The translations under genes were made by a program, and so were the position numbers. Shown in pieces: positions 16,604 to 57,427 of a stretch of 64,000 nucleotides of DNA (the stretch's first letter is position 1; each line of letters starts with the position of its first letter). The stretch is taken from IMG/VR virus record IMGVR_UViG_3300037882_002640, positions 30,811 to 94,810 of that record. One strand, written 5' to 3'. Under the pieces are notes generated by a model. That model was not told the origin of the DNA. It made no database searches and worked only from the letters and a program-made list of their open reading frames with translations. The DNA is from a virus.

Positions 16604-16611
16604 ATTAACAG

Positions 16612-18128: not shown

Positions 18129-18283
18129 ATAGCGTGGCTATTGGTGGGTAGAATTTGCGGACATAAACATCCTTTCTATTCACCCTAGTGGAATGATGCA
18201 TTTTTAATACTAGAAACAGGAAAATTCCAGCTTCTCGTGTACTCAGCCCCAGACTTCTCATAGTTTCATTCCACACCTCAAGG

Positions 18284-18871: not shown

Positions 18872-18875
18872 TGTT

Positions 18876-21046: not shown

Positions 21047-21299
21047 ATTCTTTTATGCCTTCTCGACCATTCGTTATATGGTCGAGTTCCGCTCTTTTTA
21101 GATCATCTATTGCTTTACCCCACGTTTCCCACAAATCTTTAGTCTGTTGGGAACCGTTGCTGGAGACCAGTACTTTCCGTTTACCTCCCTTCAAATAGTA
21201 ATATATCTGAACATTCCATAAACCCTCATTTCTGTAGACATGTATTTTGTAATCCTTGTAGTTGAACTTTATGTTATCTTTGATATTTTTTTTTGCCAT
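21033..21299 (-). CDS. Hypothetical protein
   Basis: 88-aa ORF in the operon. Confidence 0.6.
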   Translation of the reverse strand: MAKKNIKDNIKFNYKDYKIHVYRNEGLWNVQIYYYLKGGKRKVLVSSNGSQQTKDLWETWGKAIDDLKRAELDHITNGREGIKEYVFY

Positions 21300-21301
21300 A
21301 C

Positions 21302-21529
21302 CTAGTAACGAAATAATATTTTTTCCAGGGATTCACATTCATCCTGTATATTGTAGTACAGAGAGAAATTTATGTCATACTCCCTAATAGATTTAGCTTC
21401 ATCCTTTTTTCCTGGGTAGGAGCCTACAAAAAAGTAACATATCACAGTGTTTGTATTGTTACTTGGCCTGTACTGGCTAGTTACCTGCACGCAAAACCTA
21501 CCAATATGGATAACTTTTATCTCCTCCAT
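21302..21529 (-). CDS. Hypothetical protein
   Basis: 75-aa ORF coupled to the upstream gene. Confidence 0.55.
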   Translation of the reverse strand: MEEIKVIHIGRFCVQVTSQYRPSNNTNTVICYFFVGSYPGKKDEAKSIREYDINFSLYYNIQDECESLEKILFRY

Positions 21530-22578: not shown

Positions 22579-23690
22579 ATAGGTTTAATTTTTAAAGTTT
22601 TAGTTTTTACCCATTTTTCTTCCCTTGTTCCTTCAGTGTAAAGATTAAAGAATAAGGCTTTCTTATCCTTACCTAACCTCACTGTACGCCCAAGAGCTTG
22701 GGTAAATACCAGTAACGATGAGTCTCCTGACACTGAAATGCCAGCATCTAGACTAGGAATGTCTAACCCTTCATTTAGAGCATCAACACCTATTAACCTA
22801 CTTACTTTACCAGTTTCCATCCTTTCAAGGACCTCTGCTTTTGCTTTCTTGCTCATCTTAGAATGGTAAACTGCTGAATTAGGTAGTAGTTTTCCGCAAA
22901 TTTCAGCTTCTTTAATACTTTTGAAGAAGATTATCCATCTTCTCCCTGGGTATTGATTAACCAACTTTATAACGGCGTCCATCTTGTTACCGTTACTTCA
23001 TACCGCTTGCTTCCGCATAGTCATTGCCCCCCAAAATTCCTTACTAGCACTACTAACCTCCTTATCAGGATGATTTCTATAGTGTTTAGCGTTCTCGAAG
23101 GGGGATGAATATTCCAGGTTTTTTTCTTTGGCTAATCTCGCTAAATTCTTAGACGCTTGAATTAATTTAGCGTTGAACACTGAGTACCTCTTCCCATTCG
23201 ACTTATCGTTGGGTAAGGCTATGTTGTATACCGTGAAATCACTTATTGCCCCATCTTCTAGGGCTTCATCAACTGTTTTCTCCTTTGCTATTGGCGCAAT
23301 GCTCACCATAAAATCCAGGTACTCTAGATTAGATGGGGCTGTTGCTGTTAACAGTAAGGTGTAGTTTCTGCTTATGTTGGAGTATAAACTCCTGTAGGCT
23401 GGGGAAAGGCTTCGGTGCGCCTCATCAACTATGAGTAGATTAACGCTTTTCTTCTGCTTGTACGCTGAATTAATTGTTGTAACCTCAGCCTTTCCCCCCA
23501 CCACTTTTTTTCATGCCTCAACTAAATTTACTCTAGATGAGACGATCAGTACTTCTCCTCCAATAAGCTCTACTGCCATTTGACCGACCCTGGTCTTACC
23601 ATATCCTGTCGGGAGAAGCACTGTGACGTGTTTATGTTCTACTAATTTATTTACCGAATCCAATTGCTCGGCATCTCTGATGGTTTTCAT
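22533..23690 (-). CDS. Superfamily 2 (DExH) helicase, with two in-frame TGA
   Basis: ATG at 23690; LPTGYGKT, TGA 23511-23513 (LVEA*KK), DEAH, TAT, TGA 22998-23000, NEGLDIP, QALGRTVR, all in one frame. Confidence 0.88.
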
Positions 23691-24547
23691 TAGTTATGGG
23701 CATTACATATTTTATATTTAGCCGATATTTGGGTATTACACCCAGACACCTGGCATTCGTGTGTAGTTAACTTACAGCCTCTGCATATTTCGCCTCCTGA
23801 AGATACCCGACTTGTTGCGCACCTAGCACAATAATGTATTTTTCTGCTGTCGCAATTGTCACATAAACCTTCACGAGTCAAGTCATATCCTCCAGGTAGC
23901 CTAACATATGCGCCACATCTCAAGCAGTTATCTGCTGAATCCTTTTCACATGTATTGCAGAGAGTCTTGGTGTAGTCATTACTCTCGAATCTGCACTTAC
24001 AATTAGAGCAAACATTTGAATGCTCTAGACAGAACTTAGATCCATTTATGGTGTGTTCACTGCATATTAAGCAGTAATTTGGGAAAATACTCCCACAATG
24101 ATCGCATTCTCTGTCTTTACCTAAGTATACGTCACACTTTGGGCATTTCCTGTTACAAGACTTGCATGTAGTATCGGCCAATAAATCATCCCCACAACCG
24201 GGGCATATACCAAAGGTACAACCTCTGCATATATTATCCGAATTTATTTTCTTAAACAAATTACACTTAAAACATTTACCTAGTTTAGGGCCGTTATCAA
24301 CGCTTACACAATCATGGACAGTCGTAGAAGGGTATACTTCCGCACAAGTTTTGCACGTTACATGATGCTCTTTTAAGCAGTCAATACACATTGCTTTTGC
24401 AACTGCTCTGTCTTCTGCAGGGCTTACCCATACACCCACTGTTAAATTGGCCGTCTTACCACACTCTTGGCAAGGACTGTGTATACACATGTCGCATAGT
24501 TCTTTAGTGGAACTAATAAGTGTATCACATTTAAAGCATGTGTTCAT
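23690..24547 (-). CDS. Cysteine-rich protein built of tandem CxxC knuckles
   Basis: About 20 CxxC motifs in 285 aa. Confidence 0.7.
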   Translation of the reverse strand: MNTCFKCDTLISSTKELCDMCIHSPCQECGKTANLTVGVWVSPAEDRAVAKAMCIDCLKEHHVTCKTCAEVYPSTTVHDCVSVDNGPKLGKCFKCNLFKKINSDNICRGCTFGICPGCGDDLLADTTCKSCNRKCPKCDVYLGKDRECDHCGSIFPNYCLICSEHTINGSKFCLEHSNVCSNCKCRFESNDYTKTLCNTCEKDSADNCLRCGAYVRLPGGYDLTREGLCDNCDSRKIHYCARCATSRVSSGGEICRGCKLTTHECQVSGCNTQISAKYKICNAHN

Positions 24548-24636
24548 ACAAACACACTGCGCACCTAAGGTGCACTTCTTTACCTTCCTGCCAAAGTGTG
24601 GCGACGACCTATTTATACATGTGAATGTACGGGTAA

Positions 24637-25647
24637 CTAGTTTGGGAGTACTATACCTAGGCCACCATCAAGGATGGAATCCTCAAAGAGAGCTCTAACA
24701 GCGTCGACTTCGGGTTTTTTACCCTCGTTAATCCTGTTGCTGATTTCAGCAAATGTTAGCATTAGTTTGATTGCAGATTCTTTTTCTGCTTCATCATCAG
24801 ATGACGAGTATCTATCCTTTGCTTCCACCACCTCTGCGTATATCTTGTCTGTTTTGGTCTTATCAGTTATACCGATATACTTAAGCAAATTAAGCACAAC
24901 AGATTTATCCTTGTCTGGATTCTTGGGCTTATCATCTCCGCTACTAGCAGGGGTTGTACTTTGCTGCCCTTTATCATCCTTCATGTAGTTCTCGCTATTA
25001 GTTCCTAGTGAGTAGAATATCTCCACCACTAAGATTAAATAGTGTACTACTATAGTGGCGATCATTAAGATTATTGGAGCAGCTAGTATTGCCCAAGGAG
25101 AGGTGTAGACCCTTAATCCCATTTGCAAGCACTCTTGCACATACTCCTGTTTATTAGTGAACGGGGATATCCATGAGTAAAACAATCCTAGGTGTGGAAT
25201 TTCTCCCAAACCCGCAGCCATTATGGTCAAGTTGAAGTAGGGCGGTAGAAACAGCCCCAAAAAAGAAACCCCCATGATAATGACGTTTATCAACATTGTC
25301 CCGAATTTCGACTTAATAAAACTGTCATAGATTGCTGCCATGGTGGAGGCAATAATCATACCAGATACAAACTGGTAAAATCCTAGGATTATATGAGTCA
25401 TAATCCTAGCTATAGGATTAATTTCCACCTTAGCCCCCGCTAAATGGGTAGTGGCCGCAACAAGACATTCCCCCACTGTGGCTATCAGTAGGATGACTAG
25501 CAACCACCCCGAAAAATCATTTCGGAATTGGTTCAGAATTAAATCTGTCAGTTTTTCATCCGGGTTTGAGTTTTTTAGGCGGATGAGTACTATGGCCACG
25601 CCAATAATCCCGCAGACAGCGAGAATTGAAATTAATAGATCCGACAT
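24637..25647 (-). CDS. Polytopic membrane protein
   Basis: At least five hydrophobic segments plus a soluble C-terminal domain. Confidence 0.7.
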   Translation of the reverse strand: MSDLLISILAVCGIIGVAIVLIRLKNSNPDEKLTDLILNQFRNDFSGWLLVILLIATVGECLVAATTHLAGAKVEINPIARIMTHIILGFYQFVSGMIIASTMAAIYDSFIKSKFGTMLINVIIMGVSFLGLFLPPYFNLTIMAAGLGEIPHLGLFYSWISPFTNKQEYVQECLQMGLRVYTSPWAILAAPIILMIATIVVHYLILVVEIFYSLGTNSENYMKDDKGQQSTTPASSGDDKPKNPDKDKSVVLNLLKYIGITDKTKTDKIYAEVVEAKDRYSSSDDEAEKESAIKLMLTFAEISNRINEGKKPEVDAVRALFEDSILDGGLGIVLPN

Positions 25648-27495
25648 TTATTTTGTCCATATTGTAGAGTGAGAAGTGTCACTCTTTGGTGAGCAATTTT
25701 TTAGTAAGAGTTTCCCAGCCTGCATCATGGCGGAGCTAACTACTTGCTTTACTTTTTCCACATCTTCATCCCTGCACCTAATAACCCATTCATCATGGAT
25801 TAAGATACATATCTCGAAATTGTGGATACTGCTTAATTTTCTTAAGAGATTACCAGCTAGTTTAATCATATCCGCTCCAGTTGACTGAATTGGGTAATTA
25901 AATGCTTTTCTCCTTACTTGGGATTCAAACTTATTAATCCATTCCTTCATCGCTTGGTTCTCGTAGCCCCTTGCAATTAAGTCCGAATAAATTTTCTTAG
26001 CTTTTAGGTACTCGTCATGCCCTTCAAATAGTATTCTCCTTTTAGAGTAATTGTTGGTTATTACGTAACCATCTATTAGGGCCTGTGCGGCCTTCTTTTC
26101 CAATCCCTCTATCAGAGTAGGGTACAACGCTTTAACGTCCTCTACGGCCTTTCTAGCCACCTTCATAGGCAATCCGAATTGACTTGCAATCTTTCCTGGA
26201 CCACCACCATACAGAATTGTAAATACGATGGTTTTCGCAATCTGCCTATGTAGTGATGGAATCATATTCTCACCCCAGACTACACTTGCAGTTTTCAAAT
26301 GCAAATCAACTCCTTCCTTAAACCAGTCAAGAATTTTAGTCTCCCCATATAAATCCGCAGCTATTAACACCTCTTGTGAGGAGTAGTCAGCAGTTACAAA
26401 GGAATAACCTTCTCCTGCTTCAAAACAGTTGCGGTACTCATTCATCCTAGGAATTTGCTGCATATTAGGATTAGACGATGAAGTTCGTCCCGTGTCCACC
26501 ATTTGCATGTAACTACTATGGATTTTGCCAGTAAGTGGGCTAATCTTTGATAGAAATTTCTCACCATATGATGTCTTAAGTTTCATTAACTTCTTATACT
26601 CCAAATACAAATGTACAAGTTCATTATCAATCTTAGACAGGACAGTGGAGTTTACCCCCTCTTTTATTTCACCTGTTTTCTTATCTATAAACGAAACTGA
26701 TACACCAGTATTTTTCATCAAATCTAGAACTTGCTTTGGCGAGTTCCAGTTGATATCCCCATACACCGAAAGTTTTTCCAGAGACTTTTCAATTTCATTT
26801 TCCTGGTGCTTAATTAAAGCATTTCATTTATCGCGGTTAACATCCACACCATTAAGTTCCATGTCCGCTAAAACCAAAATAAATTCCTTTTCGACTAGGT
26901 TGTAGACATCCAGTAACCCGTCTTTTTCCATTTTAGCATGTAGGACTTCATATAGTGTGTACGTGTATTCTGTGTCTTTTGCAGCATATGCTGCTTGCTG
27001 TGGGGTTAGCTTCCCACCAAATGTTCGTCGGATGTCCTTAGTTACAGTGTAATCAAATAAGTCAGTCTGTAGCGTATACGCATACTTGTCAACATATTCC
27101 CTAGCCATACTTTCTAATGAAAAAGTACCTTTAGGGTTTGTTAAACCTAACTTAATTAACTGCCCCATAACCATGGTATCATCTACATCATTATGTACGT
27201 ATCCTGTGTGTCTTTTTATCACAGAATAATCGAATTTGCCATTATGGCAAATCCACCCTATCTTTTTTAACTTCCCTAGGAGCATCTTAGAAAATCCTTC
27301 CTGAACATCCACTAGTATAGTATAATCTTTACCTGTTATCTGTACAGTAAGAATCTCTTTGGCCTCATCCCAAGTAGTTTCCGTGTCCAGGGCTACCTTA
27401 TCTTTTATTTTACTACAAGCCTCAACTAAACTAATATTAATAAAGCCGTCAATCTTATAGTCCCCTACGAAATACCTAGTAAATTTCTTTGCCAT
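25648..27495 (-). CDS. polA: Family A DNA polymerase (3'-5' exonuclease plus polymerase), with one in-frame TGA
   Basis: Exonuclease motifs LDTET, HNGKFD, YAAKD; GVDVNRDK*NAL (TGA 26824-26826); then TGRTSS, ADYSSQE, RQIAKTIVFTILYG, IHDE in the same frame. Confidence 0.9.
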
Positions 27496-27781
27496 CGATT
27501 TCTAAAAATCTGTCTATTTTGTAAGATGAGCTCGTAAACTCATCCATATTCCTTACCACTCCCTTACTAGATACCACCCTACGTATCTTCCTAATGCAGG
27601 TGAAATTATTTAACTTCACCTTTCACTTATCGTGTTGATAGGTAACTTGGTATTTGTCAGGCACCTCATCTAGGATGAAGGGAAGGCCCTTACCCATGTA
27701 TTCCACAAGTTCAGCCTCCCCTTCGTAACCTAAATTTTGATAAGGGTCAAGGTACACTGGTACCATCTGCCCTACCTTCAT
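27476..27781 (-). CDS. Hypothetical protein with one in-frame TGA (missing from the ORF track)
   Basis: ATG 27781, TGA 27623-27625 (HDK*KVK), TAG 27476; fills the gap between its neighbours. Confidence 0.65.
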
Positions 27782-27783
27782 AC

Positions 27784-28374
27784 TTACATTTCTATATGTA
27801 TGTGACTTCCTGTAGCGCTGGGGTTGTAAAATATATAAGGCTTACATTCCTCGCGTGTAGCGTAAGTTTCCACCTCTTTACATCCTGGCTTGCCTTCGAT
27901 GTACATAGTTAGCCCATGTTCTTGTAGCCATTTCTTACCAGATTCTGATACTAAATAATCTACAAGGTCTTGAGACAAATCTAAGTCGCAGGCTTTGCCA
28001 TGTTCATGTTCTGACTTTGTCCCCCAATTCCTACGAAGTGAGGTTATCATTGCCTTGGGACCACTGTACTCCCCCAGTGCTGTTTTTAAGGCACTACAAA
28101 TATCCGTGTTTACACCTCTATACAGTACAAACCCTAGAAAGTTAGCTTTGCAGCTACCGAATTTTTTACTTTTCGGATTCTTTCATGGGTGTATTTTCAG
28201 TAGTGTATCTAGTTGTAGTTTAATGGAGTCTGTTACTCCACCATACTCTAAAACCTCCATTTTAAGGTGTTCAAGAGCATCACGTTGGTCGTCGATAATC
28301 CTATTTTGTTTTATTTGAAAACTAATAAGTGCTGCGACCATTATACCCTGTAGTGCCAATCGTATGTCATTCAT
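27784..28374 (-). CDS. Peptidase M15-like cell-wall peptidase with N-terminal anchor, with one in-frame TGA
   Basis: 28183-28374 and 27784-28050 join in frame through HP*KNP; motifs ITSLRR, SEHEHGKACD, HIHIE. Confidence 0.75.
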
Positions 28375-28419
28375 ATGTTTGCTGTCTTGTATTTACTAGT
28401 GCTCTAGTTCCAAGCACTT

Positions 28420-28707
28420 CTAGTTAGCGGGGTATAAAAGCTTGTAAGCTTTGTTTACTACAAAGAACTCCGCCACTTGGGCACCTGTATTTGGATGGTT
28501 ACGAGGAACAAACTTTTCGACTATTACGCCGTCTGATTTATTTCCGTTCCTATCGTAATACAAGTTAACGCCCCTTTTATCAGTAGTTCATGTCAGTCCC
28601 ACCTCGCTGTATGACACATTTAGCGCCATTCCAGTCCTGGCGGACCTCAAAACTACCAATCCACTGTTACTTAAGTAAGTAACAGCTCGCTCATCAATAT
28701 TGTTCAT
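28420..28707 (-). CDS. Hypothetical protein with one in-frame TGA (missing from the ORF track)
   Basis: ATG 28707 directly after the upstream stop, TGA 28588-28590 (GLT*TTD), TAG 28420. Confidence 0.65.
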
Positions 28708-28708
28708 T

Positions 28709-29269
28709 TTAACTTAGAATTGAAACAGGCCTTGGTCCATCCAAGTCCTCTCTTGGCAGTAGTAATTTCTGGAACTCTAAGTCCCATGAAATATACTCCC
28801 CACCTATCAACATGGCGTTGTTAGCCACGAAGCATCTCTTTTTATCATCGAATTGGATAGGATCGCGATAATCGCTTATCTTCACTATCCCCCCTTCGAT
28901 AATTAGTTTTACTGTCAACTCGTTCGCAACCTGCCACATGCAGGCCATCATAATAAAGGAGTTCCCTTCACATATTATCCTTACACTACGGTCATATAAA
29001 TATCTGTAATGCTTGTCACGTACAAACCCTTCTATGTGGTTTGGCCAATTACCAATTGGGGGTTTCCCATGTGGGTAATTGAAGAAGTGTGGGATATTGG
29101 TAGAGAACCCCTCAAAGTGGGGAATGTACAGGTAGTCCATTTTACTGGTACTGTCCCCAGGTAAAATTAACTTAACACTGTATCCCAACTCTAGGAGTTT
29201 GGATATATCGGGCAACTTTAATGGGTCCACCAAGACCCCTATTGTTACCTGTGAATTATTTTTGATCAT
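28709..29269 (-). CDS. Hypothetical protein, possibly a degenerate class I glutamine amidotransferase-like fold
   Basis: Strand/helix pattern IGVLV...GYSVKLI...MDYLYIP, but no intact nucleophile motif. Confidence 0.45.
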   Translation of the reverse strand: MIKNNSQVTIGVLVDPLKLPDISKLLELGYSVKLILPGDSTSKMDYLYIPHFEGFSTNIPHFFNYPHGKPPIGNWPNHIEGFVRDKHYRYLYDRSVRIICEGNSFIMMACMWQVANELTVKLIIEGGIVKISDYRDPIQFDDKKRCFVANNAMLIGGEYISWDLEFQKLLLPREDLDGPRPVSILS

Positions 29270-41752: not shown

Positions 41753-42072
41753 ACTTTTTTGCGTCTTGATTTTGAGATCTGCGCTATGAGCTTGAGGATG
41801 ATTTTCTGCTCACTAGGAGTTAATTCAAGGTACAACAGCAGGAACTGCGCCCTACGGTTTAGGTCATAACCACTCTGAGAATAGGTAGGTATCACCTCAA
41901 GAAATGAGGATAGTTTACCTACACTAAACATCTTGTGCGCTAGCCTCAAGGCGTGGGCATCACGTATATTATGCTTTTTAAGATAGTCCGAGTAGTCTAT
42001 CTTATTACGGCACATACTTATGAGTCGGTTGTGTTCTTCCAGACTAATCATTTTTTGTGTACTTTGTCCCAC
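41749..42072 (-). CDS. Hypothetical protein, paralog of 42048-42407
   Basis: Shared KM...HN.L...C and FL.V.P...GYD.N patterns. Confidence 0.6.
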   Translation of the reverse strand: MGQSTQKMISLEEHNRLISMCRNKIDYSDYLKKHNIRDAHALRLAHKMFSVGKLSSFLEVIPTYSQSGYDLNRRAQFLLLYLELTPSEQKIILKLIAQISKSRRKKV

Positions 42073-42407
42073 CTTGCTTTATCTGCAATAATGATTTTCG
42101 CAGAAGCCGGGCTAGGTGGGTTGGTTAGAAACTGAATCTCTTTCTTTTTGACATGGTAACACTCCAATACCAAATCAGTTATTGGGTTGTAATCATATCC
42201 TTCTGTTCTTTCTAAAGGCATAACTTGAAGAAAGGTGTGTATAACACCTGCTTCAAACATTACTTTAGATACTTTTTCCCTCACGTAAGGAGGCCTACCC
42301 TCTAAAAATAGAGCATATTCTTCCGCAAATTGGCATTCAACTACCAAGTCATTGTGTTGCTTGATAGTCATTTTCTTGGTGACGGTTACAGATATTTTAT
42401 TTTCCAT
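42048..42407 (-). CDS. Hypothetical protein, paralog of 41749-42072
   Basis: Same shared patterns as its neighbour. Confidence 0.6.
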   Translation of the reverse strand: MENKISVTVTKKMTIKQHNDLVVECQFAEEYALFLEGRPPYVREKVSKVMFEAGVIHTFLQVMPLERTEGYDYNPITDLVLECYHVKKKEIQFLTNPPSPASAKIIIADKARWDKVHKK

Positions 42408-42706
42408 TTACCTTCTTTGTAGACGATTACGCCCATTTTATAATACACGACTTTGTCCGTGCCAGTGAATTTCTTGACCCACACTACCCTACCTTCGTAG
42501 GTGTATTGAGAGCCATCTACCTTGCAGTAGGGCTCCAGTTTGTACTTCTGGATGAGGTCTACGGAGTCAACACGGGTCGTGATTTCGCCTCCAGATATTT
42601 TTGCGGATTTTGTGCGAATGACGCTTCCCTGATGAGGGATAGTGTTCTGAGCACAGGATTGTAGACTCGCTACAATCATAATGATGAAAACAAATACTTT
42701 GTTCAT
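42386..42706 (-). CDS. Putative lipoprotein
   Basis: Signal peptide ending SLQSC. Confidence 0.6.
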   Translation of the reverse strand: MNKVFVFIIMIVASLQSCAQNTIPHQGSVIRTKSAKISGGEITTRVDSVDLIQKYKLEPYCKVDGSQYTYEGRVVWVKKFTGTDKVVYYKMGVIVYKEGKWKIKYL

Positions 42707-42952
42707 AAAAGTTTAAAATAATTTGACTGTGAGAAATACCCACTTAGCGATGAAAAATATCACTAATAGGGCAATACATAAGTTTTGGAAGGGGGAGTGC
42801 CCCTCTTTAATTCTTTTTAGTGATGGTTTCATAGTGTGAGTTAAAAATTAAGAGAAAAATGAGCACCCACCATTACGGCTGGCACTCACGTGTACTTTGG
42901 GACTAGCAAAAACCATTAGCGAAACCTAGCCCCTATTATTCACCTTGCTCTG

Positions 42953-43036
42953 TACCACTGTTGGGACTCGAACCCAAACTCCGATTAAGGAAGGAGACAA
43001 AAAATCTCCCGCGTCCACCAATTGCGCCACAGTGAC
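42953..43036 (-). tRNA. Type II (Leu-like body) tRNA with anticodon loop TTTTTTG, nominally UUU; atypical or pseudo
   Basis: GTCACTG TG GCGCAATTGGTGGACGC G GGAGA TTTTTTG TCTCC, long variable arm, TTGGG TTCGAGT CCCAA CAGTGGT A. Confidence 0.65.
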
Positions 43037-43419
43037 CATTTGAAAGTGCGAGGGGGCATATTACTACGCCACCCTCACGTCAACACATTCTGTCTGGTTC
43101 AATCACTATTATCTTTAGGTGAATGCCCACCCCCACTATAGAGCAGAGATGGGCTCCAAACATTCACCAATTCAAAGCTGGGGGAGGTGTGTCTCCCTGG
43201 GAGATTTGGAAAAATCAACCCTCAACCCACCCACATGGGCCAGCAAATTCTTTAGTAGGAATAAAATTCCCCACACTGTATTACTACAGGCAGGGAGTCA
43301 CAAAGGGTATTTATTCACTTAGAGGATTGCAGGGTAACGAACCCTAATAAACACAAATGCCACACCCACCCTCTTTTGGGCAGATGCAGCAGGTTTCCAA
43401 TCCGTAATATCTTATGATG

Positions 43420-43493
43420 TGCGCCATCAGGGATTTGAACCCCGGACCTACTGATTATGAGTCAGTTGCTCTAACCTGCTGAGCTAATGGCGC
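43420..43493 (-). tRNA. tRNA with CAT anticodon (Met or Ile2)
   Basis: Canonical cloverleaf GCGCCAT/ATGGCGC, ACTGA CTCATAA TCAGT, TTCAAAT T-loop. Confidence 0.92.
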
Positions 43494-43577
43494 GAGAATG
43501 CCCTACAATCAATTATTATTTAATTCTGATATACTGATACCAAAAATAAAAGATAATTGATTGTGGGTAGGTTTAAA

Positions 43578-43868
43578 TTAGTTTGAAGCCCGTTGTGGAG
43601 CGTAGGCAGGGCTTACAAATGACGCAATACGTGTCAGGTGCACATACTTGGCATCACCAAAGGCCACTAATTTATTATTGTGATAGTAGTGGCGATTGTG
43701 TACCCTGCACGTTAGTGTTACAGGATTTTGGCCCTGTAGTTGGACTGTGAGGTTATTCCCTTTTACACTGAACGTGTAAGGGATTATTTCCTGCGCATGC
43801 GATTTCCCGCTCTGCCCCCACATGATGAATGGGAGAATAGTGAGGATAATGATGATGAGTTTTTTCAT
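43578..43868 (-). CDS. Exported hypothetical protein
   Basis: Signal-peptide-like N-terminus. Confidence 0.6.
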   Translation of the reverse strand: MKKLIIIILTILPFIMWGQSGKSHAQEIIPYTFSVKGNNLTVQLQGQNPVTLTCRVHNRHYYHNNKLVAFGDAKYVHLTRIASFVSPAYAPQRASN

Positions 43869-43913
43869 TATGCTGCTTATTTTAGTGTATAGATTATAAT
43901 GGACAATACTATG

Positions 43914-44210
43914 CTAGCCTCGATTTTCCCAAGCCGCGTTAACAGCTTTGAGTTTTGCATCTTTCTGGTTCTTACCATCCCCATAGAAATTTCCATGTGA
44001 TGTAGACAGGTTTACTTTAATAGTAAGTTTTCCAGTTTTATCAGTAGTTTGACGCACATTAAAGCTGGCGGAGCGGCCATAAGCTTGTTGGTGCCATAAC
44101 ATGTACTGTGATACTGTTATGGCAGGAGCCATAAGATGGCTAATCTTATTGAATGTGCTCGCTTTCTCTTCTGCAGAGAGTTTAACGAATAATACAATGA
44201 TTTCTTCCAT
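43914..44210 (-). CDS. Stand-alone dsRNA-binding-domain-like protein
   Basis: C-terminal TIKVNL...FYGDGKNQKDAKLKAVNAAW resembles the dsRBD G.G.SKK.A...AA signature. Confidence 0.55.
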   Translation of the reverse strand: MEEIIVLFVKLSAEEKASTFNKISHLMAPAITVSQYMLWHQQAYGRSASFNVRQTTDKTGKLTIKVNLSTSHGNFYGDGKNQKDAKLKAVNAAWENRG

Positions 44211-44271
44211 GATTATGTTAGTTTTTTATTTGCTCTTGTAGCATAGCTGTTAAAAATTAATAAATAGTTAG

Positions 44272-44350
44272 TGCCCCGTGCTGGACTCGAACCAGCTACC
44301 TACTGACTCCAAATTGAAGGCAGTTGCTCTATCCTCTGAGCTAACAGGGC
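44272..44350 (-). tRNA. tRNA-like gene with UCA (opal) anticodon and enlarged 13-nt anticodon loop
   Basis: GCCCTGT TA GCTC AGAGGATA GAGC A ACTGC CTTCAATTTGGAG TCAGT AGGTA GCTGG TTCGAGT CCAGC ACGGGGC A. Confidence 0.7.
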
Positions 44351-44721
44351 GTTTAAAAACCAGGGGACACTTTACAGCATCCCCCAGAAATTATGGGTGT
44401 CAATCATATTGGGAATTTCACCCTTGACCTCATCCACCTCTACGCGGGTGGGACAAGCAGTATACCAACTTACTTGTTTAAAACGCGACCCCAAGAGACT
44501 GAGGGATTTGTGGTTTGCACTGCGGTCTTGCTTTGGGAAAGCACAGTGCTGGGTATAGTGGTTTAGGAGGAGTTATATGCCCCACATGCTTGTCTACATT
44601 ATTAACGTCTCTTGGAGTTACATAATGTACTCTAGAAAACTAGAGAAGGATTCTCACCTTAAAGATGGTTCTACGCTTATACTCTCTTATCTCCTATGAA
44701 CCAAAAACAGTCTCGCGCTTC

Positions 44722-44979
44722 TTAAGGATCAAACTCCACCGCAATCTTATAATGCGGTATTTTTGTCCCAAGAATTTTTATATACTCTTTTACTGCACTA
44801 TCCGCACCAAATGCTGGGTGTGCTGTTTTGAAGAGTACCTCATCCTTAACACGTACCCTCCAGTAGCCTGCGAGGTTACACTCAAGGTGGACTTGCTCCT
44901 GTGAGTAACATGTTTTCCAACTGGCGTACTGCCAATCGAACAAGTCACTGTAAGTGACTTTTACTTTCTCTTGTGTCAT
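44722..44979 (-). CDS. Hypothetical protein
   Basis: 85-aa ATG ORF with an AT-rich leader. Confidence 0.6.
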   Translation of the reverse strand: MTQEKVKVTYSDLFDWQYASWKTCYSQEQVHLECNLAGYWRVRVKDEVLFKTAHPAFGADSAVKEYIKILGTKIPHYKIAVEFDP

Positions 44980-45192
44980 GATTTTTTTAATTTATGTTAG
45001 TATCCATGTCCTTACCAATGAATGCTTTAGAGATTGAATACCCCCTCCCTTTGGGTCGTGGTGTCGGCTGCTGGCTCGTATAGCAGGGCAATCTTTTCGC
45101 CGTACTGGTGCGGGCCTTGACAACTGTATAGGAGCGCGAAGGCGGTAATGATGGTTGCGAGTTTTGTTTTTTGCATGGTGTGTTATTTTTAT

Positions 45193-45438
45193 TTAATTAA
45201 ATACCTTTTTTCGTAGTTTTTTGGCAATTTCACTTGCACGAGCAATTTCATCGCCAAAATCTATAACAGTTTGGTATTTATACTTTGCATCTAACTGCTT
45301 GAATTCTTGAGATTCTTTTTGCCCTTGTTTTGCCAGTAACGCCATTCGCCGCAAGTCGGCAGTTTTTTGCTTCAACAGCGCGTCCTTTCGCTCGATGGCA
45401 AAAGCGATTTCTACTAACTCTTTGAAGTAATCTTTCAT
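45193..45438 (-). CDS. Hypothetical helical protein
   Basis: 81-aa ATG ORF. Confidence 0.6.
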   Translation of the reverse strand: MKDYFKELVEIAFAIERKDALLKQKTADLRRMALLAKQGQKESQEFKQLDAKYKYQTVIDFGDEIARASEIAKKLRKKVFN

Positions 45439-45453
45439 TTCATGTTGTTTTTA

Positions 45454-45486
45454 AAAACCCCCAATCGCGTTAACGATTGGGGGTTT
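45454..45486 (-). terminator. Intrinsic terminator
   Basis: AAACCCCCAATCG / CGATTGGGGGTTT inverted repeat with a T run. Confidence 0.75.
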
Positions 45487-45718
45487 GATTGGTTTGGCTG
45501 TGCTAATTATGCGTTATATTCCTCCCACGCTTCCTGCAACTCGCCTTGGAATTGCTGGAAAGTAGCGTAACATAACGAAGCGGCATGTTGCATCGCGTCA
45601 CTGTCAGACGTGTCGAGGTTCGGGAACAGGTCTGTGTGTTCCAATATGAACTCACCGTACTGACGGCTTTCGTGGTCAATTTGACTGCCGTCATTTATGA
45701 GTTCAAAAAACGCATCCT

Positions 45719-45955
45719 TTACCGCGTTTTGGTCGAATAGTTCGGCGGCAGTGTATAGTCTATCAAATCTACGAAGAGAGTCCCGTAAGACTCTTGTACA
45801 AGTCTTAGCACTTCCGCATCCTCAATGCGGTCTAAATATTTTTCTTCTAAAAGTATAGAAGCCTCTTCTGGCTCCCCTAATGGTTTCTCTTCCTCATCAG
45901 GGGAGATTCTTTGGACTATTACTTTTACTTTTACGACTGCGTTGTGTTCGGTCAT
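45719..45955 (-). CDS. Hypothetical protein
   Basis: 78-aa ATG ORF. Confidence 0.6.
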   Translation of the reverse strand: MTEHNAVVKVKVIVQRISPDEEEKPLGEPEEASILLEEKYLDRIEDAEVLRLVQESYGTLFVDLIDYTLPPNYSTKTR

Positions 45956-45986
45956 GATTTTTTAATTTATTCTTGTTTAATGTTTT

Positions 45987-46030
45987 TACTGTTTCGATCC
46001 TCAATTAGATCATCATCAGGTTGAACAGTA
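45987..46030 (-). ncRNA. Hammerhead-like RNA (type III arrangement) lacking a normal stem I
   Basis: TACTG TT CAAC CTGATGA T GATC TAATTGAG GATC GAAA CAGTA. Confidence 0.55.
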
Positions 46031-46116
46031 GTCCAACGACAGTTAAGCATCTCATTTTGCAACAAGATGCTTAATTTATTATATTATTTGAGTTATTTCC
46101 CACTTTTCTAACTTAG

Positions 46117-46152
46117 TACCCCGTACAGGACTCGAACCTGTGACCATACGTT
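46117..46152 (-). pseudogene. Isolated tRNA 3' half
   Basis: AACGTAT GGTC ACAGG TTCGAGT CCTGT ACGGGGT A; no matching 5' half was seen upstream. Confidence 0.6.
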
Positions 46153-46343
46153 AGTCTTTCTCATTCTTTACGAAAGAACAACTCTCTATTTTCAAGAGTT
46201 GATAAGAAAAAAAATAAATCAGTTGCATAGCCCTTGAATTTAATCACCGGGCCAGTTCCTTTGAGCGAGAGACTCTTTTATTGAGTTGCGCTGCTGGACA
46301 ATTTTGTTAAGGCACTTTATCTCTTGCCCCAACTGATTTAAAT

Positions 46344-46378
46344 AAGCCCACACAGTCATTATGACTGTGTGGGCTTTT
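46344..46378. terminator. Long perfect hairpin, terminator-like
   Basis: AAGCCCACACAGTCAT / ATGACTGTGTGGGCTT. Confidence 0.65.
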
Positions 46379-46744
46379 CACTTACCTTCATTTTTTGATT
46401 GAGTAAACGGGTTGCCTATAGAAAAATTTCTTCAAGTTCTTTAAGAACCTGTTTCAGGGTAGACCGCCAAACTGGCGTGTCGAATTTTTTCTGGAGTAGT
46501 CCTTTGACTTCCTCCAAAATCTGAGACTCTTCGATTTTTAGTTCTTCTAACCCGGCTATTGCTCCTTCCGCGTAAGAAAAAATTATACTGTATCTCTATT
46601 CTGTCATAATATTTTGAGTGAAATTAAGTTAAAAATCCCCGATTCCAGACTACACTGCTTTAAGTTTAATGCGCGGGTTTACGAGCCCTCATAGGCAGTG
46701 CGCGGTAGCCGTGTGTTGGAATCGGGGTTAAATGTGAAACTGGA

Positions 46745-47581
46745 TTAGCAGTCTAAGTTAATGATTGTAGAGTCCTCTGCTTGTGCAGTGGTTTTACGGT
46801 CACCACCACCTCTGCGGGGTTGAGGAGGGTTGATTATCTCGTCTATTACCTTGCGAAACTCCCAAGGGAAGTCGAACTCGGCACATTTCATAGTGCCATT
46901 CACGTTCAAAACTCCATACTTGCAACCCTCGAAAGAAAGGCTGCCGCGTCCAGCCCATTCAGATGGGTTTTGAACTACAGTGAAGAATTCACTTCTTTCG
47001 ATTCTACTTTCTGGTACTGGAACGTAATAGTTCCACCCCTTGAGTCGATAAATCTCTTTGTTTTTTAGGTACACAAACCCACGAGAATGTGCAAGGACGG
47101 ATTCAACAACAGTCTCTCTTTCTGCCCGAATATCAGGTAGAAGAGAGTACAACACTCCACGGCAGAATGCGGGGATTAAGAAAGTCTGGAGGACATAGGA
47201 GTCCTCCACCTCTAAAATAGTGCTCACTCTGGTGTTTAGAACCTCAGCCCCAACGCCTTCCAAATATTCCCCCAAAGTAGTGATGAAACATCCTTGGAAG
47301 GATACCTCCTTCCAATTTAGCGATTCGTTGAAGAAACCTTCTTGTGCGAAGGAAGTTTTGGTGAAATAGATGAATTCACAGCCCCCCTCAAAGAAAGGCA
47401 CTATGAATTGTATGTACTCATTGTCATCTGTTGTGACCAGTCCCGATATCGGCACTTGGCAGGATTCACCTGCCGCGTACTCGGATTTTAACTGATTACC
47501 CAACCGCGTTGGGAGAGTGGCATCGAAGAGTATTTTCATACCCGTGTATCCACCCTGTGTTTTATTGAGTGTAATTTTCAT
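46745..47581 (-). CDS. Hypothetical protein
   Basis: True start is probably MKITLNK at 47581; the ORF-track start lies inside a tRNA-like gene. Confidence 0.7.
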   Translation of the reverse strand: MKITLNKTQGGYTGMKILFDATLPTRLGNQLKSEYAAGESCQVPISGLVTTDDNEYIQFIVPFFEGGCEFIYFTKTSFAQEGFFNESLNWKEVSFQGCFITTLGEYLEGVGAEVLNTRVSTILEVEDSYVLQTFLIPAFCRGVLYSLLPDIRAERETVVESVLAHSRGFVYLKNKEIYRLKGWNYYVPVPESRIERSEFFTVVQNPSEWAGRGSLSFEGCKYGVLNVNGTMKCAEFDFPWEFRKVIDEIINPPQPRRGGGDRKTTAQAEDSTIINLDC

Positions 47582-47613
47582 AATAAAGATGAATAATAAA
47601 GATGAATAAATAG

Positions 47614-47692
47614 TGACCCAAACAGGACTCGAACCTGCATACTCCAATTACTCAGTTAACGACCGCTTAGAAGGCGGTTGAGATATTGGGCC
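47614..47692 (-). tRNA. Non-canonical tRNA-Arg(TCT)-like RNA with no standard D-arm and a long variable region
   Basis: GGCCCAA TATCTCA ACCGC CTTCTAA GCGGT CGTTAACTGAGTAATTGGAGTAT GCAGG TTCGAGT CCTGT TTGGGTC A. Confidence 0.65.
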
Positions 47693-48109
47693 AATTTCCT
47701 GCGTCGTAGGCTGTTGCTATGCAGGGTGAGTATGTGTTTCTACCAATAGATTTCTTCGGCGGCTAATCACCTGTGTATCTATCATACTCTTTGTGCTTTG
47801 GGATGTTATCCCTTTTCGAGAGCACCAGTCTCTATCCCAACCACTTATCGTATGGTCCTAAGACATACTGGGGTTGAGAACATTAAGCAGTTTATCGGGA
47901 TGCTTAGCCTAATTCTTAATCTTGATTGCTCAAACCTTCACATTAAGATTATTTGTGAAGTACTAGTACCTTTCGGGTAATTCATTTGTTAGTAATCATC
48001 TAACAAATATACCATAAACTACTCACCTTATCTCACGACTTAGGCTTCCTTGTGACAATTACATAACAATCCTTATGGCGAGTGTTATAACTAAAGTACT
48101 GTTGTTCCC

Positions 48110-48376
48110 TTAGGTTGTCATTTTGAGAATCTCGATAACATAACTTAATTCTACATCTTTGGTGATGTAGTTTGTTGTGCTAAAGGTTTCCTTCAGTGCG
48201 GACGCTATATTCCCCCTGTTCAGGTTGAAATATATCCACTCATGTTTTGTAGAAACAGGTTTGAACCCAACTTCGAGTATTGCTACTACTTGATGGGTTG
48301 TTGTTTCCTTACATGCTTGAAGGAATCCTAACTCTTGTTTATACGTACCTATGACGTATAGTTCTACAGTCTTCAT
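48110..48376 (-). CDS. Hypothetical protein
   Basis: Likely start MKTVELY in an ATGA overlap with the upstream stop. Confidence 0.55.
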   Translation of the reverse strand: MKTVELYVIGTYKQELGFLQACKETTTHQVVAILEVGFKPVSTKHEWIYFNLNRGNIASALKETFSTTNYITKDVELSYVIEILKMTT

Positions 48377-48567
48377 ATCTGAATCTTGTAGAATAAAGAG
48401 TCGAGGCTCTCTGTGCAGTATTGATCCCACACCAATAGTCCTTCCTGTAGAAGAAAGCACTCTGATTTATAACCTTGAGATTTAGCCCAAGGTGTCGGTA
48501 CCAATACCACAACATCTTTTGTTACGCCCAGTTTGATTCTGGCGTAACGTTGTAATGTTGTTAACAT
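48373..48567 (-). CDS. Small hypothetical protein whose ATG lies in stem I of a hammerhead ribozyme
   Basis: 64-aa ORF, ATGA-coupled to the downstream gene. Confidence 0.6.
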   Translation of the reverse strand: MLTTLQRYARIKLGVTKDVVVLVPTPWAKSQGYKSECFLLQEGLLVWDQYCTESLDSLFYKIQI

Positions 48568-48630
48568 GACTTATAAATAAGTTTCGGCACTTATATTTAT
48601 ACTCCTGTGCCATCATCAGATGTTTGGAGT
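48563..48630 (-). ncRNA. Type I hammerhead ribozyme
   Basis: AACAT CTGATGA T GGCAC loop GTGCC GAAA CTTAT TT ATAAG TC^ATGTT; loop II GGAGT can pair with upstream ACTCC. Confidence 0.85.
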
Positions 48631-48923
48631 TGGTAAGTACAAACTTACCTTTCACCTGTGAATTTTAAATAAACACCCAAGCATTGCAACCCAGAGGTTT
48701 CAGTGCATTATACTATGATTTCTCATAGTCAAGTCTTGCTTGGGTGTTCTATTCGCTGTTACTCAAGATGAGACATACTCGCCAGAATAGTTCACTGGCT
48801 TTTATCAGACCATCCTTGGTGGATTCTGACTTTCTTGTTATTTCACTTACAACCCCGAAAGGTAGAAATATACAAACGCCAGATTTCACCGCAGAAATCT
48901 GGGAAATGGCAGCAAATAGTGTT

Positions 48924-48995
48924 ACCACGATATAATTTCGCCTGTACCTCATCAGGTGGTTTTATCATTTATTTATACTCCCTGAATAGTACAGG
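48924..48995 (-). ncRNA. Minimal type I hammerhead ribozyme
   Basis: ACCAC CTGATGA GGTACAGGC GAAA TTATA TC^GTGGT; GTACAGG has a perfect upstream complement CCTGTAC at 48989-48995. Confidence 0.7.
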
Positions 48996-49060
48996 TTAGG
49001 AGTTAAAGAATTACTGCTATCATAGTTGAGAAAGCAGTAATTCTTTGCATATGGAAGAGT

Positions 49061-54906: not shown

Positions 54907-55167
54907 ATGTCTGCTCAAAAAATTGAAACTCTAGAAGCTACTATAGCATCACAAACATCGCTCCTTATGCAGCGTGAAATCCAAGTTGATAAGCTCGCTA
55001 ATCTTGTCGCATCAATTGCTGTAAAGATTGATGAAACTAACCTTCCTAATAAGTTTACATTCTCTTATGTAGTATCTAATTGGAGGAAACTATCAGGATT
55101 GATTGCTGATATAGTTAAACTTATCAAGAATTACAAAGCGCAATTAAGTGTTCGATCTGACATCTAA
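54907..55167 (+). CDS. Hypothetical coiled-coil protein
   Basis: Likely start MSAQKIE. Confidence 0.55.
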   Translation: MSAQKIETLEATIASQTSLLMQREIQVDKLANLVASIAVKIDETNLPNKFTFSYVVSNWRKLSGLIADIVKLIKNYKAQLSVRSDI

Positions 55168-55618
55168 TTTCTTTGATAACTCTCAATACAGAGTTATATT
55201 TAAGGATGATATTAACACTCCATCAGAGGTAATGTGGGCTTTGATGTTGATATATCACCCTAAATCCGAGTATTACGAGATGCCTCTCTCCTCTAGGATT
55301 AACCTAGTTTTGAAGGATCAAGGAATATCAGGTTATGACATCACCACACACCAGTCAACAATAGATAAGATTCAGTTAATCTACCTTACTAAGACTCAGA
55401 TGTCCCTCTTTAACTGGGAGAAGAAGTTAGAGGAGAGAGATGCTTTCATAGCATCACATCCTTATGATGCTAATACATATGAGATGTTAGATAAACTTAT
55501 GTCTTCCACCCCTAAACTGTGGGATCAATTCTTTTCCTTACAGAAACAATTAGAGAAGGAAGAAGGTAAGACAAGAGGAGATATAGAAGAATCTTTAACT
55601 GATAAAAATATAATATAA
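55148..55618 (+). CDS. Hypothetical protein of the packaging module
   Basis: 156-aa ORF upstream of groEL and the terminase gene. Confidence 0.65.
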   Translation: MFDLTSNFFDNSQYRVIFKDDINTPSEVMWALMLIYHPKSEYYEMPLSSRINLVLKDQGISGYDITTHQSTIDKIQLIYLTKTQMSLFNWEKKLEERDAFIASHPYDANTYEMLDKLMSSTPKLWDQFFSLQKQLEKEEGKTRGDIEESLTDKNII

Positions 55619-55818
55619 TGGAATATAACGTAAATTTTGATTTTAACATCTCACTAAAGAGTGAAGAGGCAGTAACAGAGGTTCGTACTAAGATAGCACA
55701 AATTTTAGCAGACTATAACTGCGATAACTATCGCTACTCACAGTACACACGTAAAGAGGAAAAGTATTGTGGTGGCTGTCCTGCACAAGGCATAGAGCTT
55801 ACCGAAAAGAGTATCTAG
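55618..55818 (+). CDS. Small hypothetical protein
   Basis: TAATG-coupled; one CGGC motif. Confidence 0.55.
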   Translation: MEYNVNFDFNISLKSEEAVTEVRTKIAQILADYNCDNYRYSQYTRKEEKYCGGCPAQGIELTEKSI

Positions 55819-55858
55819 AAATAATGGGGGATGAAAGTCCCCCTTAACACATTATTAA

Positions 55859-57427
55859 ATGAAAAAAGTAATATTTAATCCCACTACAAGGGAACAACTC
55901 TTAGAAGGAGTTAAAACACTATCCGATGCTGTAGGCACAACCCTCGGACCTAAAGGCAATAATGTGGTTATCCAGAACTCTTTTGGCACTACTCTCGTCA
56001 CTAAAGATGGTGTGACTGTGGCTAAGAATATCGTGCTTGAAGATCCACTACAGAATATGGGTTGCGACATTATCAAACAAGCAGCTTCTAAGACCGCAGA
56101 CATCGCAGGTGACGGAACTACCACTGCAACTGTTTTAGCATATCATCTAGCTAAGAATGGTATGTATTTAGCTAAGAATGGGATATCTCCAATCAATATT
56201 AAACGGCAGTATGAACTCCTCTTACAAGAGGCTTTACTGTACCTACAGAAGGAGTCCAAAGCTGTAACACCTACAGATGTAATCAACATTGCTACCATCT
56301 CTGCAAATAACGATCCTGAACTTGGAAAGTTAATTGCTGAAGCTGTCTCTTATGCAAGCTCTTCTGGTTTAGTATCTGTAGAAGAATCCAAGACAGGTGA
56401 GACATACATTGATACTGTAGAGGGCTCAATCTTCGATAGAGGATTTGTTTCCCCCCTCTTTATTAATAACAATAAGAATACTGTAGTATTAGAAAACCCC
56501 ATCTTCCTTATTACTGATAAGAAGATTCGCACAGCTAATGAGATTGTCCCAGCAATGGAAATTGCATCTAAAGAAGGACGACCTTTGGTAGTTATTGCAG
56601 ATGAGATTGAAGCTCAAGCTCTCCAGTTACTTCTTATTAATAAGGTAAATGGACGTCTAAATTCAGTTGCCATTAAAGCTCCTGCATTTGGTAATCGTAG
56701 GCAAGAGATTCTAGAAGATTTATGTTCCCTAACATCCTCTACCTTAATTACTGAAAACCGAGGACTTAAACTTGAAGGAGTTACTGCTGAACATTTAGGT
56801 GAGGCTGGAAAGATTGTAGTTACCTCTGATGAGACTACCATTACTAAACCAGTGCATGCTTCCGATGTAGTTGACCGTATAGAAGGAATTAAGAGCAAAC
56901 TTAATGATAATCCTTCCTCTTACGATTTCGATAAGTTAACCGCTAGACTATCCCTACTACAAGGACAGGCTGCTGTTATACATGTTGGTGCTTTCACTGA
57001 GACTGAGATGTCTGAGAAAAAAGACAGAATTGATGATGCTCTTCGCGCTACAAGAGCAGCTTTAGAGAAAGGTTATGTAACTGGTGGTGGTTATACTCTT
57101 GTAAAGATTGCTAAACTACTTGGCCCAACTGACCCAGTTTCAGAAGCATTTATTGAAGCTTTGATTGCTCCAGCTTTACTGATACGATCTAATGCAGGTC
57201 AGACAGTTAGAGATATAATTGAGGAATACACTTTTAAAGGTGAATTTAATTCTCACACTATGGAGTTTAGTAATCTGCTGGAAGATGGAGTTATTGACCC
57301 CACACTTGTAACTGAGCAAGTGCTTAAAAATGCAGTATCTGCAGCTTGTATGATTCTTCTTTCAACAACAGCTGTTTACCCAATTGAGAAACCATACTCA
57401 CCTGGGAACTTAGAAGATTACCAATAA
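55859..57427 (+). CDS. groEL: Chaperonin GroEL
   Basis: TLGPKG, TKDGVTVA, AGDGTTTATVLA, KAPAFG, EKKDRIDDAL, GVIDP motifs. Confidence 0.95.
   Translation: MKKVIFNPTTREQLLEGVKTLSDAVGTTLGPKGNNVVIQNSFGTTLVTKDGVTVAKNIVLEDPLQNMGCDIIKQAASKTADIAGDGTTTATVLAYHLAKNGMYLAKNGISPINIKRQYELLLQEALLYLQKESKAVTPTDVINIATISANNDPELGKLIAEAVSYASSSGLVSVEESKTGETYIDTVEGSIFDRGFVSPLFINNNKNTVVLENPIFLITDKKIRTANEIVPAMEIASKEGRPLVVIADEIEAQALQLLLINKVNGRLNSVAIKAPAFGNRRQEILEDLCSLTSSTLITENRGLKLEGVTAEHLGEAGKIVVTSDETTITKPVHASDVVDRIEGIKSKLNDNPSSYDFDKLTARLSLLQGQAAVIHVGAFTETEMSEKKDRIDDALRATRAALEKGYVTGGGYTLVKIAKLLGPTDPVSEAFIEALIAPALLIRSNAGQTVRDIIEEYTFKGEFNSHTMEFSNLLEDGVIDPTLVTEQVLKNAVSAACMILLSTTAVYPIEKPYSPGNLEDYQ

Follow-up and report, generated by a model that had tools for sequence, protein, structure and literature searches.

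Introduction

Can a tRNA gene that holds UCA in the anticodon register, within an anticodon arm that is six nucleotides too long, supply the UGA decoder of a phage that reads TGA as tryptophan? The gene lies in a 64-kb stretch of DNA (39% G+C), hereafter the window, which forms the last 64 kb of a 94.8-kb IMG/VR virus record that CheckV rates 95% complete. The virus is a tailed phage infecting a bacterium: it has a tailed-phage gene set of large terminase, portal and GroEL-like chaperonin, its lysozyme (PF00959) and DnaB are indicative of a bacterial host, and its PolA carries a 3'-5' exonuclease domain. Fragments of the phage, amounting to small shares of its sequence, are present in 16 freshwater or algal DNA sequencing runs; none of the runs listed with such fragments is an RNA run.

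In the TGA-recoded phages of Borges et al. the late genes are recoded, and a suppressor tRNA is detectable in only 35% of such phages, non-canonical ones being predicted (bioRxiv 10.1101/2021.08.26.457843). As most TGA-recoded phages are without a detectable suppressor, every odd UCA-bearing tRNA becomes a candidate answer. The present case indicates that UCA in register is insufficient: the loop is predicted to be closed, the body is of the arginine type and the codons to be read are tryptophan codons.

Anatomy of the tRNA gene

The gene is a full-length match to the Rfam tRNA family RF00005 (52.2 bits, E 2.4e-8; cut-off 29), in an alignment that needs an 8-nt insert in the anticodon loop (Table 1). 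The acceptor stem (GCCCUGU/ACGGGGC) forms seven pairs, one of them G.U, and is followed by A73; the D arm reads GCUC-AGAGGAUA-GAGC and contains G18 and G19, the variable loop is the 5-nt AGGUA, and the T arm has the GUUCRA loop of the family. The anticodon arm, ACUGC-CUUCAAUUUGGAG-UCAGU, measures 23 nt instead of the usual 17, and no placement of a 5-bp anticodon stem with a 7-nt loop and U33 is possible within it. C32-U33-U34-C35-A36-A37 nevertheless stands in the canonical register. The six extra bases, UUGGAG, form an inverted repeat with the neighbouring CUUCAA (five Watson-Crick pairs, one G.U), and the equivalent of the C31-39 pair is a C.U mismatch. Deviation is confined to this arm; the conserved tertiary nucleotides are intact, and the multi-arm defects expected of a tRNA pseudogene are absent. 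An Rfam search with the gene gave no intron match, the insert being 6 nt. Direct reading and the Rfam score agree with the preliminary description of the locus, which had reported intact acceptor, D and T arms around an over-long anticodon arm, with CT-TCA-A in register and six extra bases. In four DNA runs, whose reads over the gene (depth 1-5) are too few to carry weight, there is no listed difference or indel.

Table 1. Features of the tRNA gene, of its surroundings and of a related phage. Coordinates are those of the window unless another record is named; positions are counted along the tRNA.
Feature	Coordinates	Strand	Basis or remark
tRNA-Arg-derived gene, 79 nt; CCA not encoded; discriminator A at 44272	44272-44350	-	Rfam RF00005, cloverleaf fold, BLAST
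5' half of acceptor stem, positions 1-7; partner strand at 44273-44279	44344-44350	-	7/7 pairs; sequence and fold
D arm, positions 10-25; 4-bp stem, loop AGAGGAUA with G18, G19, A20	44326-44341	-	same D arm in bacterial tRNA-Arg(CCG/CCU)
Anticodon arm, 23 nt, positions 27-49; ACUG/CAGU, C.U mismatch, CUUCA/UGGAG, triloop AUU	44302-44324	-	sequence and fold
UCA in canonical anticodon register, positions 34-36; predicted base-paired	44315-44317	-	pairing probabilities
Extra hexamer UUGGAG, positions 39-44	44307-44312	-	6-column gap in seven other aligned tRNAs
T arm GCUGG-UUCGAGU-CCAGC, positions 55-71	44280-44296	-	sequence and fold; identical in bacterial tRNA-Arg
Terminator-like hairpin with run of U, 9 nt 5' of tRNA position 1	44360-44387	-	consensus scan only
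Orphan ORF, 98 aa, 61 nt downstream of the tRNA	43914-44210	-	possible stand-alone dsRNA-binding domain
Canonical tRNA-Met(CAU), apparent own transcription unit	43358-43543	-	promoter-like 43543-43515, terminator-like hairpin 43391-43358
Type II, Leu-like tRNA	42953-43036	-	only phage BLAST match is a tRNA-Leu
tRNA-Arg(UCU)-like gene without normal D arm	47614-47692	-	3.3 kb upstream of the tRNA
Replication module, 13-14 in-frame TGAs at Trp positions	14534-28713	-	alignment to relatives
GroEL-like chaperonin	55859-57424	+	phrog_5725, E 6e-131; directly upstream of large terminase
tRNA-shaped gene of relative G002; 6-bp D stem, 36-nt anticodon arm, ~13 pairs	L085:1501-1591 = G002:38241-38331	-

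Predicted fold of the anticodon arm

The best fold of the whole RNA in RNAfold is a cloverleaf with an extended anticodon rod, at -32.7 kcal/mol (fold z -3.4; 0 of 200 shuffles as good). The anticodon U34, C35 and A36 is predicted to pair with the internal UGG, the five pairs of CUUCA/UGGAG being C-G, U-A, U.G, C-G and A-U, and the arm would form a continuous rod of 4 bp, the C.U mismatch, 5 bp and a triloop. Predicted pairing probabilities at 37 °C are 0.98 for U34, 0.99 for C35 and 0.64 for A36; the first two lend weight to the fold-back of CTTCA on TGGAG over the anticodon that had been proposed from inspection of the sequence. At 37 °C, closure of the arm is predicted to gain 7.0 kcal/mol over an open 15-nt loop, and the advantage is larger still at 10-20 °C. 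When positions 36-45 were replaced by random 10-mers, U34 and C35 were sealed in 1.8% of 4000 trials, and the fold-back is therefore not a chance property. We refer to the gene product below as the sealed tRNA.

An ordinary decoder might still be obtained by placing the anticodon in another register. ARAGORN returns tRNA-Leu(CAA), and a tRNA-Pro(UGG) with a UUUGGAG loop can also be drawn, in which UU-UGG-AG offers U33 and a purine at 37. Both are very improbable. The leucine register leaves a stem of three pairs and two mismatches with a 10-nt unpaired variable region, folds at -24.2 against -32.7 kcal/mol, and would place a leucine anticodon outside the type II architecture of bacterial tRNA-Leu; in the proline register CUUCAA would remain as a 5' insert without pairs, on a body that is Arg-type and not Pro-type. 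Run with its intron option, ARAGORN again gave Leu(caa), which we reject on energy: with its 3-pair stem and a fold 8.5 kcal/mol worse than the best, we treat the label as an artefact.

Arginine origin of the sealed tRNA

A BLAST search of the sealed tRNA against 50,697 phage records gave 277 hits, and the best listed matches are annotated as tRNA-Arg, with the anticodon TCT wherever one is given. The tRNA-Arg(UCU) genes of Klebsiella phages RaK2, VLCpiS13b and LPKP23 and of Streptomyces phage LuckySocke are 74-78% identical to the whole gene and share with it the A20 D loop, the ACUGC 5' strand of the anticodon stem, the CUUC start of the loop, the AGGU variable loop, the T arm and A73. In an alignment of the sealed tRNA with seven other tRNAs (A3), the arm ACUGC-CUUCUAA-GCAGU of the tRNA-Arg(UCU) relatives stands opposite the long arm, which differs from it in having A instead of U at 36, six additional columns and, at 39, U instead of G; the relatives have a 7-nt CUUCUAA loop closed by C31-G39, whereas here a helix replaces the loop. 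When 185,579 prokaryote genomes were scanned for this D arm combined with this T arm, ten genes were found, all of them tRNA-Arg (CCG or CCU). The identity set of arginyl-tRNA synthetase (ArgRS) comprises A20, C35 and A73. Because BLAST, the alignment and the D and T arms shared with bacterial tRNA-Arg all point the same way, the body of the sealed tRNA is, as judged from its sequence, that of an ordinary phage or bacterial tRNA-Arg, and the Arg-like features that the preliminary description had recognised in the D loop and A73 are confirmed. Of the hallmarks of tRNA-Arg(UCU), the gene retains kinship, A20 and A/G73 and lacks the open UCU anticodon.

DNA pattern scans for the same anticodon arm found nothing, and the sealed design is a singleton so far. 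A looser arm scan gave 118 matches, which we dismiss as chance since a simple stem-pairing screen shows no tRNA frame around them. As to its origin, the gene is best explained as paralogous to the tRNA-Arg(UCU) commonly found in phages, its loop having been rebuilt by a 6-nt inverted repeat together with U36-to-A and G39-to-U changes.

The hairpin could be the recent product of one template switch, in which case the gene would be a pseudogene instead of a selected mimic. An Arg(UCU) copy, or an Arg-derived UCA suppressor, would have been hit by one templated inverted-repeat insertion and would now be functionless and not yet decayed elsewhere. We regard this as possible though doubtful. The hexamer repeats CUUCAA almost exactly in inverted form, just as a single template switch would yield, yet two or more additional changes (U36A or A38U, plus G39U) fall on the same spot, the 16 other pairs and the tertiary bases are intact, and one position of the arm is a G.U pair instead of a pairing-breaking copy error.

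TGA recoding in the replication module

The replication module accounts for every one of the 13 in-frame TGAs seen across the 34 genes that are conserved with relatives, and all 13 are on the minus strand. For PolA, an SF2 helicase, the primase and an exonuclease, an unbroken reading frame is obtained only when TGA is read through. Aligned to relatives, 11 of the 13 TGAs correspond to tryptophan and none to arginine, and the one in PolA is W226, which is nearly invariant in 16 homologues; the TGA-recoded replication module of the preliminary description is thereby upheld. The conserved plus-strand late genes contain no TGA, and approximately 13 other minus-strand genes terminate in TGA with short tails. 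This is an unusual form of recoding, with TGA a sense codon only in replication genes, whereas members of the same clade also recode late genes. A restriction to replication genes is the reverse of the late-gene recoding known from gut phages, including those of Borges et al.

The phage needs a UGA decoder for its replication genes and has no canonical tRNA(UCA); apart from the sealed gene, there is no UCA-bearing tRNA in the 95%-complete genome. Of the 13 sense TGAs, 11 have A as the next base; after TGG the figure is 33 of 103 (p = 4e-4). Normal tRNA-Trp classically reads through UGA in this UGA-A context. UGA would most simply be read as tryptophan by the host tRNA-Trp on UGA-A contexts, and in line with this the preference for A is stronger here than in the suppressor-owning relatives.

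Related recoded phages

The closest PolA homologues in NCBI, Logan and ENA sources are 54-56% identical, and the search of viral, genome and metagenome contigs found no closer relative above 37% PolA identity. Nine IMG/VR contigs (~35% PolA identity) also have an in-frame TGA in PolA, which is absent from the next 71. Three of the relatives (G001, G002 and G004, full records) are colinear with the phage genome, and these use TGA for tryptophan in late genes too.

G001 and G002 each have a tRNA with an open C-U-UCA-A-A loop (L082 and L084, respectively) at the same late site, between the homologue of window 55148-55615 and the GroEL-like gene. The G001 suppressor is Trp-like, with G73; that of G002 combines the open loop with an 8-bp acceptor stem. 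Like the sealed tRNA, the suppressor tRNA(UCA) species of TGA-to-Trp recoded phages (Borges et al.), with L082 and L084 counted among them here, occur alongside in-frame TGA at tryptophan positions and have UCA flanked by C-U and A; their loops are open and of 7 nt, whereas that of the sealed tRNA is closed. The late-operon site beside the GroEL-like gene that is conserved for L082 and L084 is empty in this phage, where a 243-nt gap (55616-55858) is tRNA-free and contains only a hairpin and a 66-codon ORF. As no other UCA tRNA is encoded and this site is empty, the sealed gene is the only phage-encoded candidate decoder.

The sealed tRNA may accordingly be considered as a conditional opal suppressor, with its UCA shut by the UGG codon mimic and opened by a factor, for example a dsRBD-like protein, or by excision of the hexamer and religation. 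The need is real, with 13 TGAs in PolA, the helicases, primase and exonuclease and one of them at a nearly invariant tryptophan; the gene lies upstream of, and co-oriented with, the recoded module, and its C32-U33-UCA-A37 context is perfect. Even so, we consider this reading unlikely. Decoding of the phage TGAs by the sealed tRNA is disfavoured because the codons mean tryptophan, while A20, C35 and A73 mean arginine. Bacterial tryptophanyl-tRNA synthetase (TrpRS) recognises the anticodon and G73, and the sequence, with A73 and an Arg-type body, does not suggest that the RNA could be charged with tryptophan. TGA is indeed found at tryptophan positions in this genome, as a TGA-to-Trp suppressor would require, but in place of an open 7-nt UCA loop there is a sealed one of 13 nt, whose closed state is predicted to be favoured by 7 kcal/mol. 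Removal of the hexamer leaves the C31.U39 mismatch, and neither a bulge-helix-bulge nor a group I intron could be accommodated in 6 nt. The host, moreover, is bacterial, and searches of the phage genome for an Rnl2-type RNA ligase and RtcB, and for TrpRS/TyrRS and a release factor, gave no match. Approximately 13 same-strand genes end in TGA, which also argues against suppression.

Comparison with the relatives points in the same direction. No homologue of the sealed tRNA is found in G001, G002, G004 or the partial G003 and G005, all distant at 35% PolA identity, and the suppressors of G001 and G002 are not homologous to it. Absence from related recoded genomes had been named in the preliminary description as a refuting outcome, and G001, G002 and G004 lack the gene. 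The proposal of the preliminary description that a masked suppressor provides the switch for the recoded module is thus weakened by the arginine identity, the 7 kcal/mol mask, the missing ligase and the lack of a homologue in relatives; its fallback, a decayed tRNA or a decoy, is where the sealed loop, the arginine body and the same lack of homologues point.

Genomic neighbourhood

The sealed tRNA lies in a genome region (68-84.5 kb) of fast turnover that has no genes in common with relatives, a location that suits a pseudogene, as does the absence of a homologue in G001, G002 and G004. A sigma-70 scan found no promoter for the gene. Two further observations in the cluster also favour a disabled copy. 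The type II gene at 42953-43036 likewise has an abnormal loop (U-rich UUUUUUG, without a purine at position 37; labelled Lys(ttt) by ARAGORN), and a second Arg(UCU) gene, 3.3 kb upstream, makes the sealed one redundant.

That second gene (47614-47692) argues in the other direction as well. A 4-bp helix, CUCA/UGAG, encloses its whole anticodon arm, and the D-loop-like UAAUUGGAGUAU comes after it. Homologues with 83% identity occur in the Streptomyces phages Francob, Genie2, Enygma and Yaboi, that of Yaboi being annotated as 'tRNA-Val(aac)', and compensatory changes among them affect the enclosing helix, the anticodon stem and the acceptor stem. By this comparison of sequences the gene is a member of a conserved, rewired tRNA family, and because the family is conserved with compensatory changes, the odd tRNAs of the cluster are not simply decaying. 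The string AAUU(U)GGAGU is common to the sealed tRNA and to this gene, in which it is the conserved D-loop substitute; it was not found as a repeated motif of the genome. The tRNA-Met(CAU) and the sealed tRNA have the same 3' anticodon-stem strand and variable loop, UCAGUAGGU. Two candidate hammerhead ribozymes at 48563-48995 gave no Rfam match at E values up to 1 (42000-49000 searched).

Over-long anticodon arms also occur at an equivalent place in the relatives. The tRNA-shaped gene of G002 (Table 1) has the tip loop GUUCAA and a fold z of -4.7, and G004 has two aberrant tRNA-shaped genes in the variable region upstream of its replication module. As the odd arms of G002, G004 and this phage all lie upstream of, and co-oriented with, the replication module, over-long anticodon arms recur there in the clade, which speaks against a pseudogene.

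The 98-aa ORF next to the sealed tRNA has no Pfam, PHROG or PDB-sequence match and no homologue among 5.8e9 proteins. Its look-alikes in the ESM Atlas are all dsrm domains or RNase III C-termini (score 0.88, TM 0.6-0.73), and its C-terminus contains a G-x-G...K-x-A-K...A-A signature; a single-sequence AF2 model was poor (pLDDT 43). No homologue of the ORF was found beside the odd tRNAs of G002 and G004. From these structural look-alikes, its product is a possible partner of the long helix of the sealed tRNA, and we treat it as a lead.

Discussion

A tRNA look-alike or a disabled copy is more likely than the stop-codon reader of this phage. The explanation that we favour, tentatively, is that the sealed tRNA is a non-decoding tRNA-shaped RNA, derived from tRNA-Arg(UCU) and retained for its body. 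The RNA would still be excised and CCA-tailed in the manner of a tRNA. Its anticodon, paired as predicted, would be available neither to a codon nor to ArgRS or TrpRS; since it could not be presented to either a codon or a synthetase, the RNA as transcribed probably reads no codon. The confinement of the changes to about 10 nt of the loop, with the 16 other pairs perfect, argues for retained selection on the body, which may serve as a punctuation mark for RNase P and 3' processing in an early transcript, or as a tRNA mimic or decoy. The dsRBD-like neighbour protein may bind along the long helix. AGA would be left to the conserved, rewired tRNA-Arg(UCU) upstream, and UGA would be read as tryptophan by something else, most simply the host tRNA-Trp. 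Against this explanation, C-U-UCA-A is the textbook loop context, and essential genes carry one or two in-frame TGAs, for which the sealed gene is the sole phage-encoded candidate decoder.

T4 species 1 and 2 RNAs are non-decoding tRNA-shaped RNAs in a phage tRNA cluster. The sealed tRNA resembles them in its canonical acceptor and T arm, its off-standard anticodon arm and its location in such a cluster. If the sealed RNA is stable and selected, it would constitute a compact, datable case of a decoder tRNA turned tRNA mimic. In a clade that otherwise recodes late genes too and has a canonical suppressor at one constant position, the replication-only pattern makes the present phage a good test of partial recoding on host tRNA-Trp read-through.

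Known suppressors also speak for a conditional decoder. A UGA suppressor of T4 is associated with tRNA-Arg (Kao and McClain 1977, J Biol Chem 252:8254), as listed in PMC12807605, and is a precedent for one derived from an Arg tRNA. In IMG/VR, the tRNA L260 is Arg-like with a canonical CUUCAAA loop, and the low share of TGA-recoded phages with a detectable suppressor likewise leaves room for non-canonical ones. The T4 suppressor is said to be of the Arg(UCU) type, with the anticodon UCA, one base from UCU, in a normal 7-nt loop, and to insert arginine. Both it and the sealed tRNA would thus be Arg(UCU)-type tRNAs with UCA, but the loop is sealed here and the TGAs of the phage stand for tryptophan. 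A more specific form of the suppressor reading, in which a self-masked Arg-derived tRNA(UCA) is locked by an internal Trp codon UGG and opened by the dsRBD-like or another early factor, gating the TGA-containing replication genes, we hold to be slightly less probable again. If true, it would parallel anticodon-intron pairing in a virus of bacteria, and would exemplify the 'undetectable' suppressors that are missing from most TGA-recoded phages.

Such pairing is seen in three giant-virus tRNA-Arg(UCU) genes of IMG/VR (L274, L277 and L279), on contigs that are NCLDV (Rpb2, NCLDV capsid). Their eukaryote-type introns of 10-11 nt follow A37 and pair with the anticodon and, as in the sealed tRNA, which is derived from the same tRNA species, extra bases directly 3' of A37 fold onto the anticodon; this likeness speaks for a conditional suppressor. 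Eukaryotic and archaeal hosts have a splicing endonuclease for pre-tRNA introns after position 37. Every Arg(UCU) gene found with such an insert belongs to a giant virus of eukaryotes, which weighs against the suppressor reading. In contrast to the 10-11 nt and eukaryotic hosts of the giant-virus genes, the insert of the sealed tRNA is 6 nt and its host bacterial; removal of the giant-virus inserts restores CUUCUAA and a perfect 5-bp stem, whereas the sealed tRNA keeps its C.U mismatch. ARAGORN without its intron option mislabels one of these three giant-virus genes as '???(acac)'.
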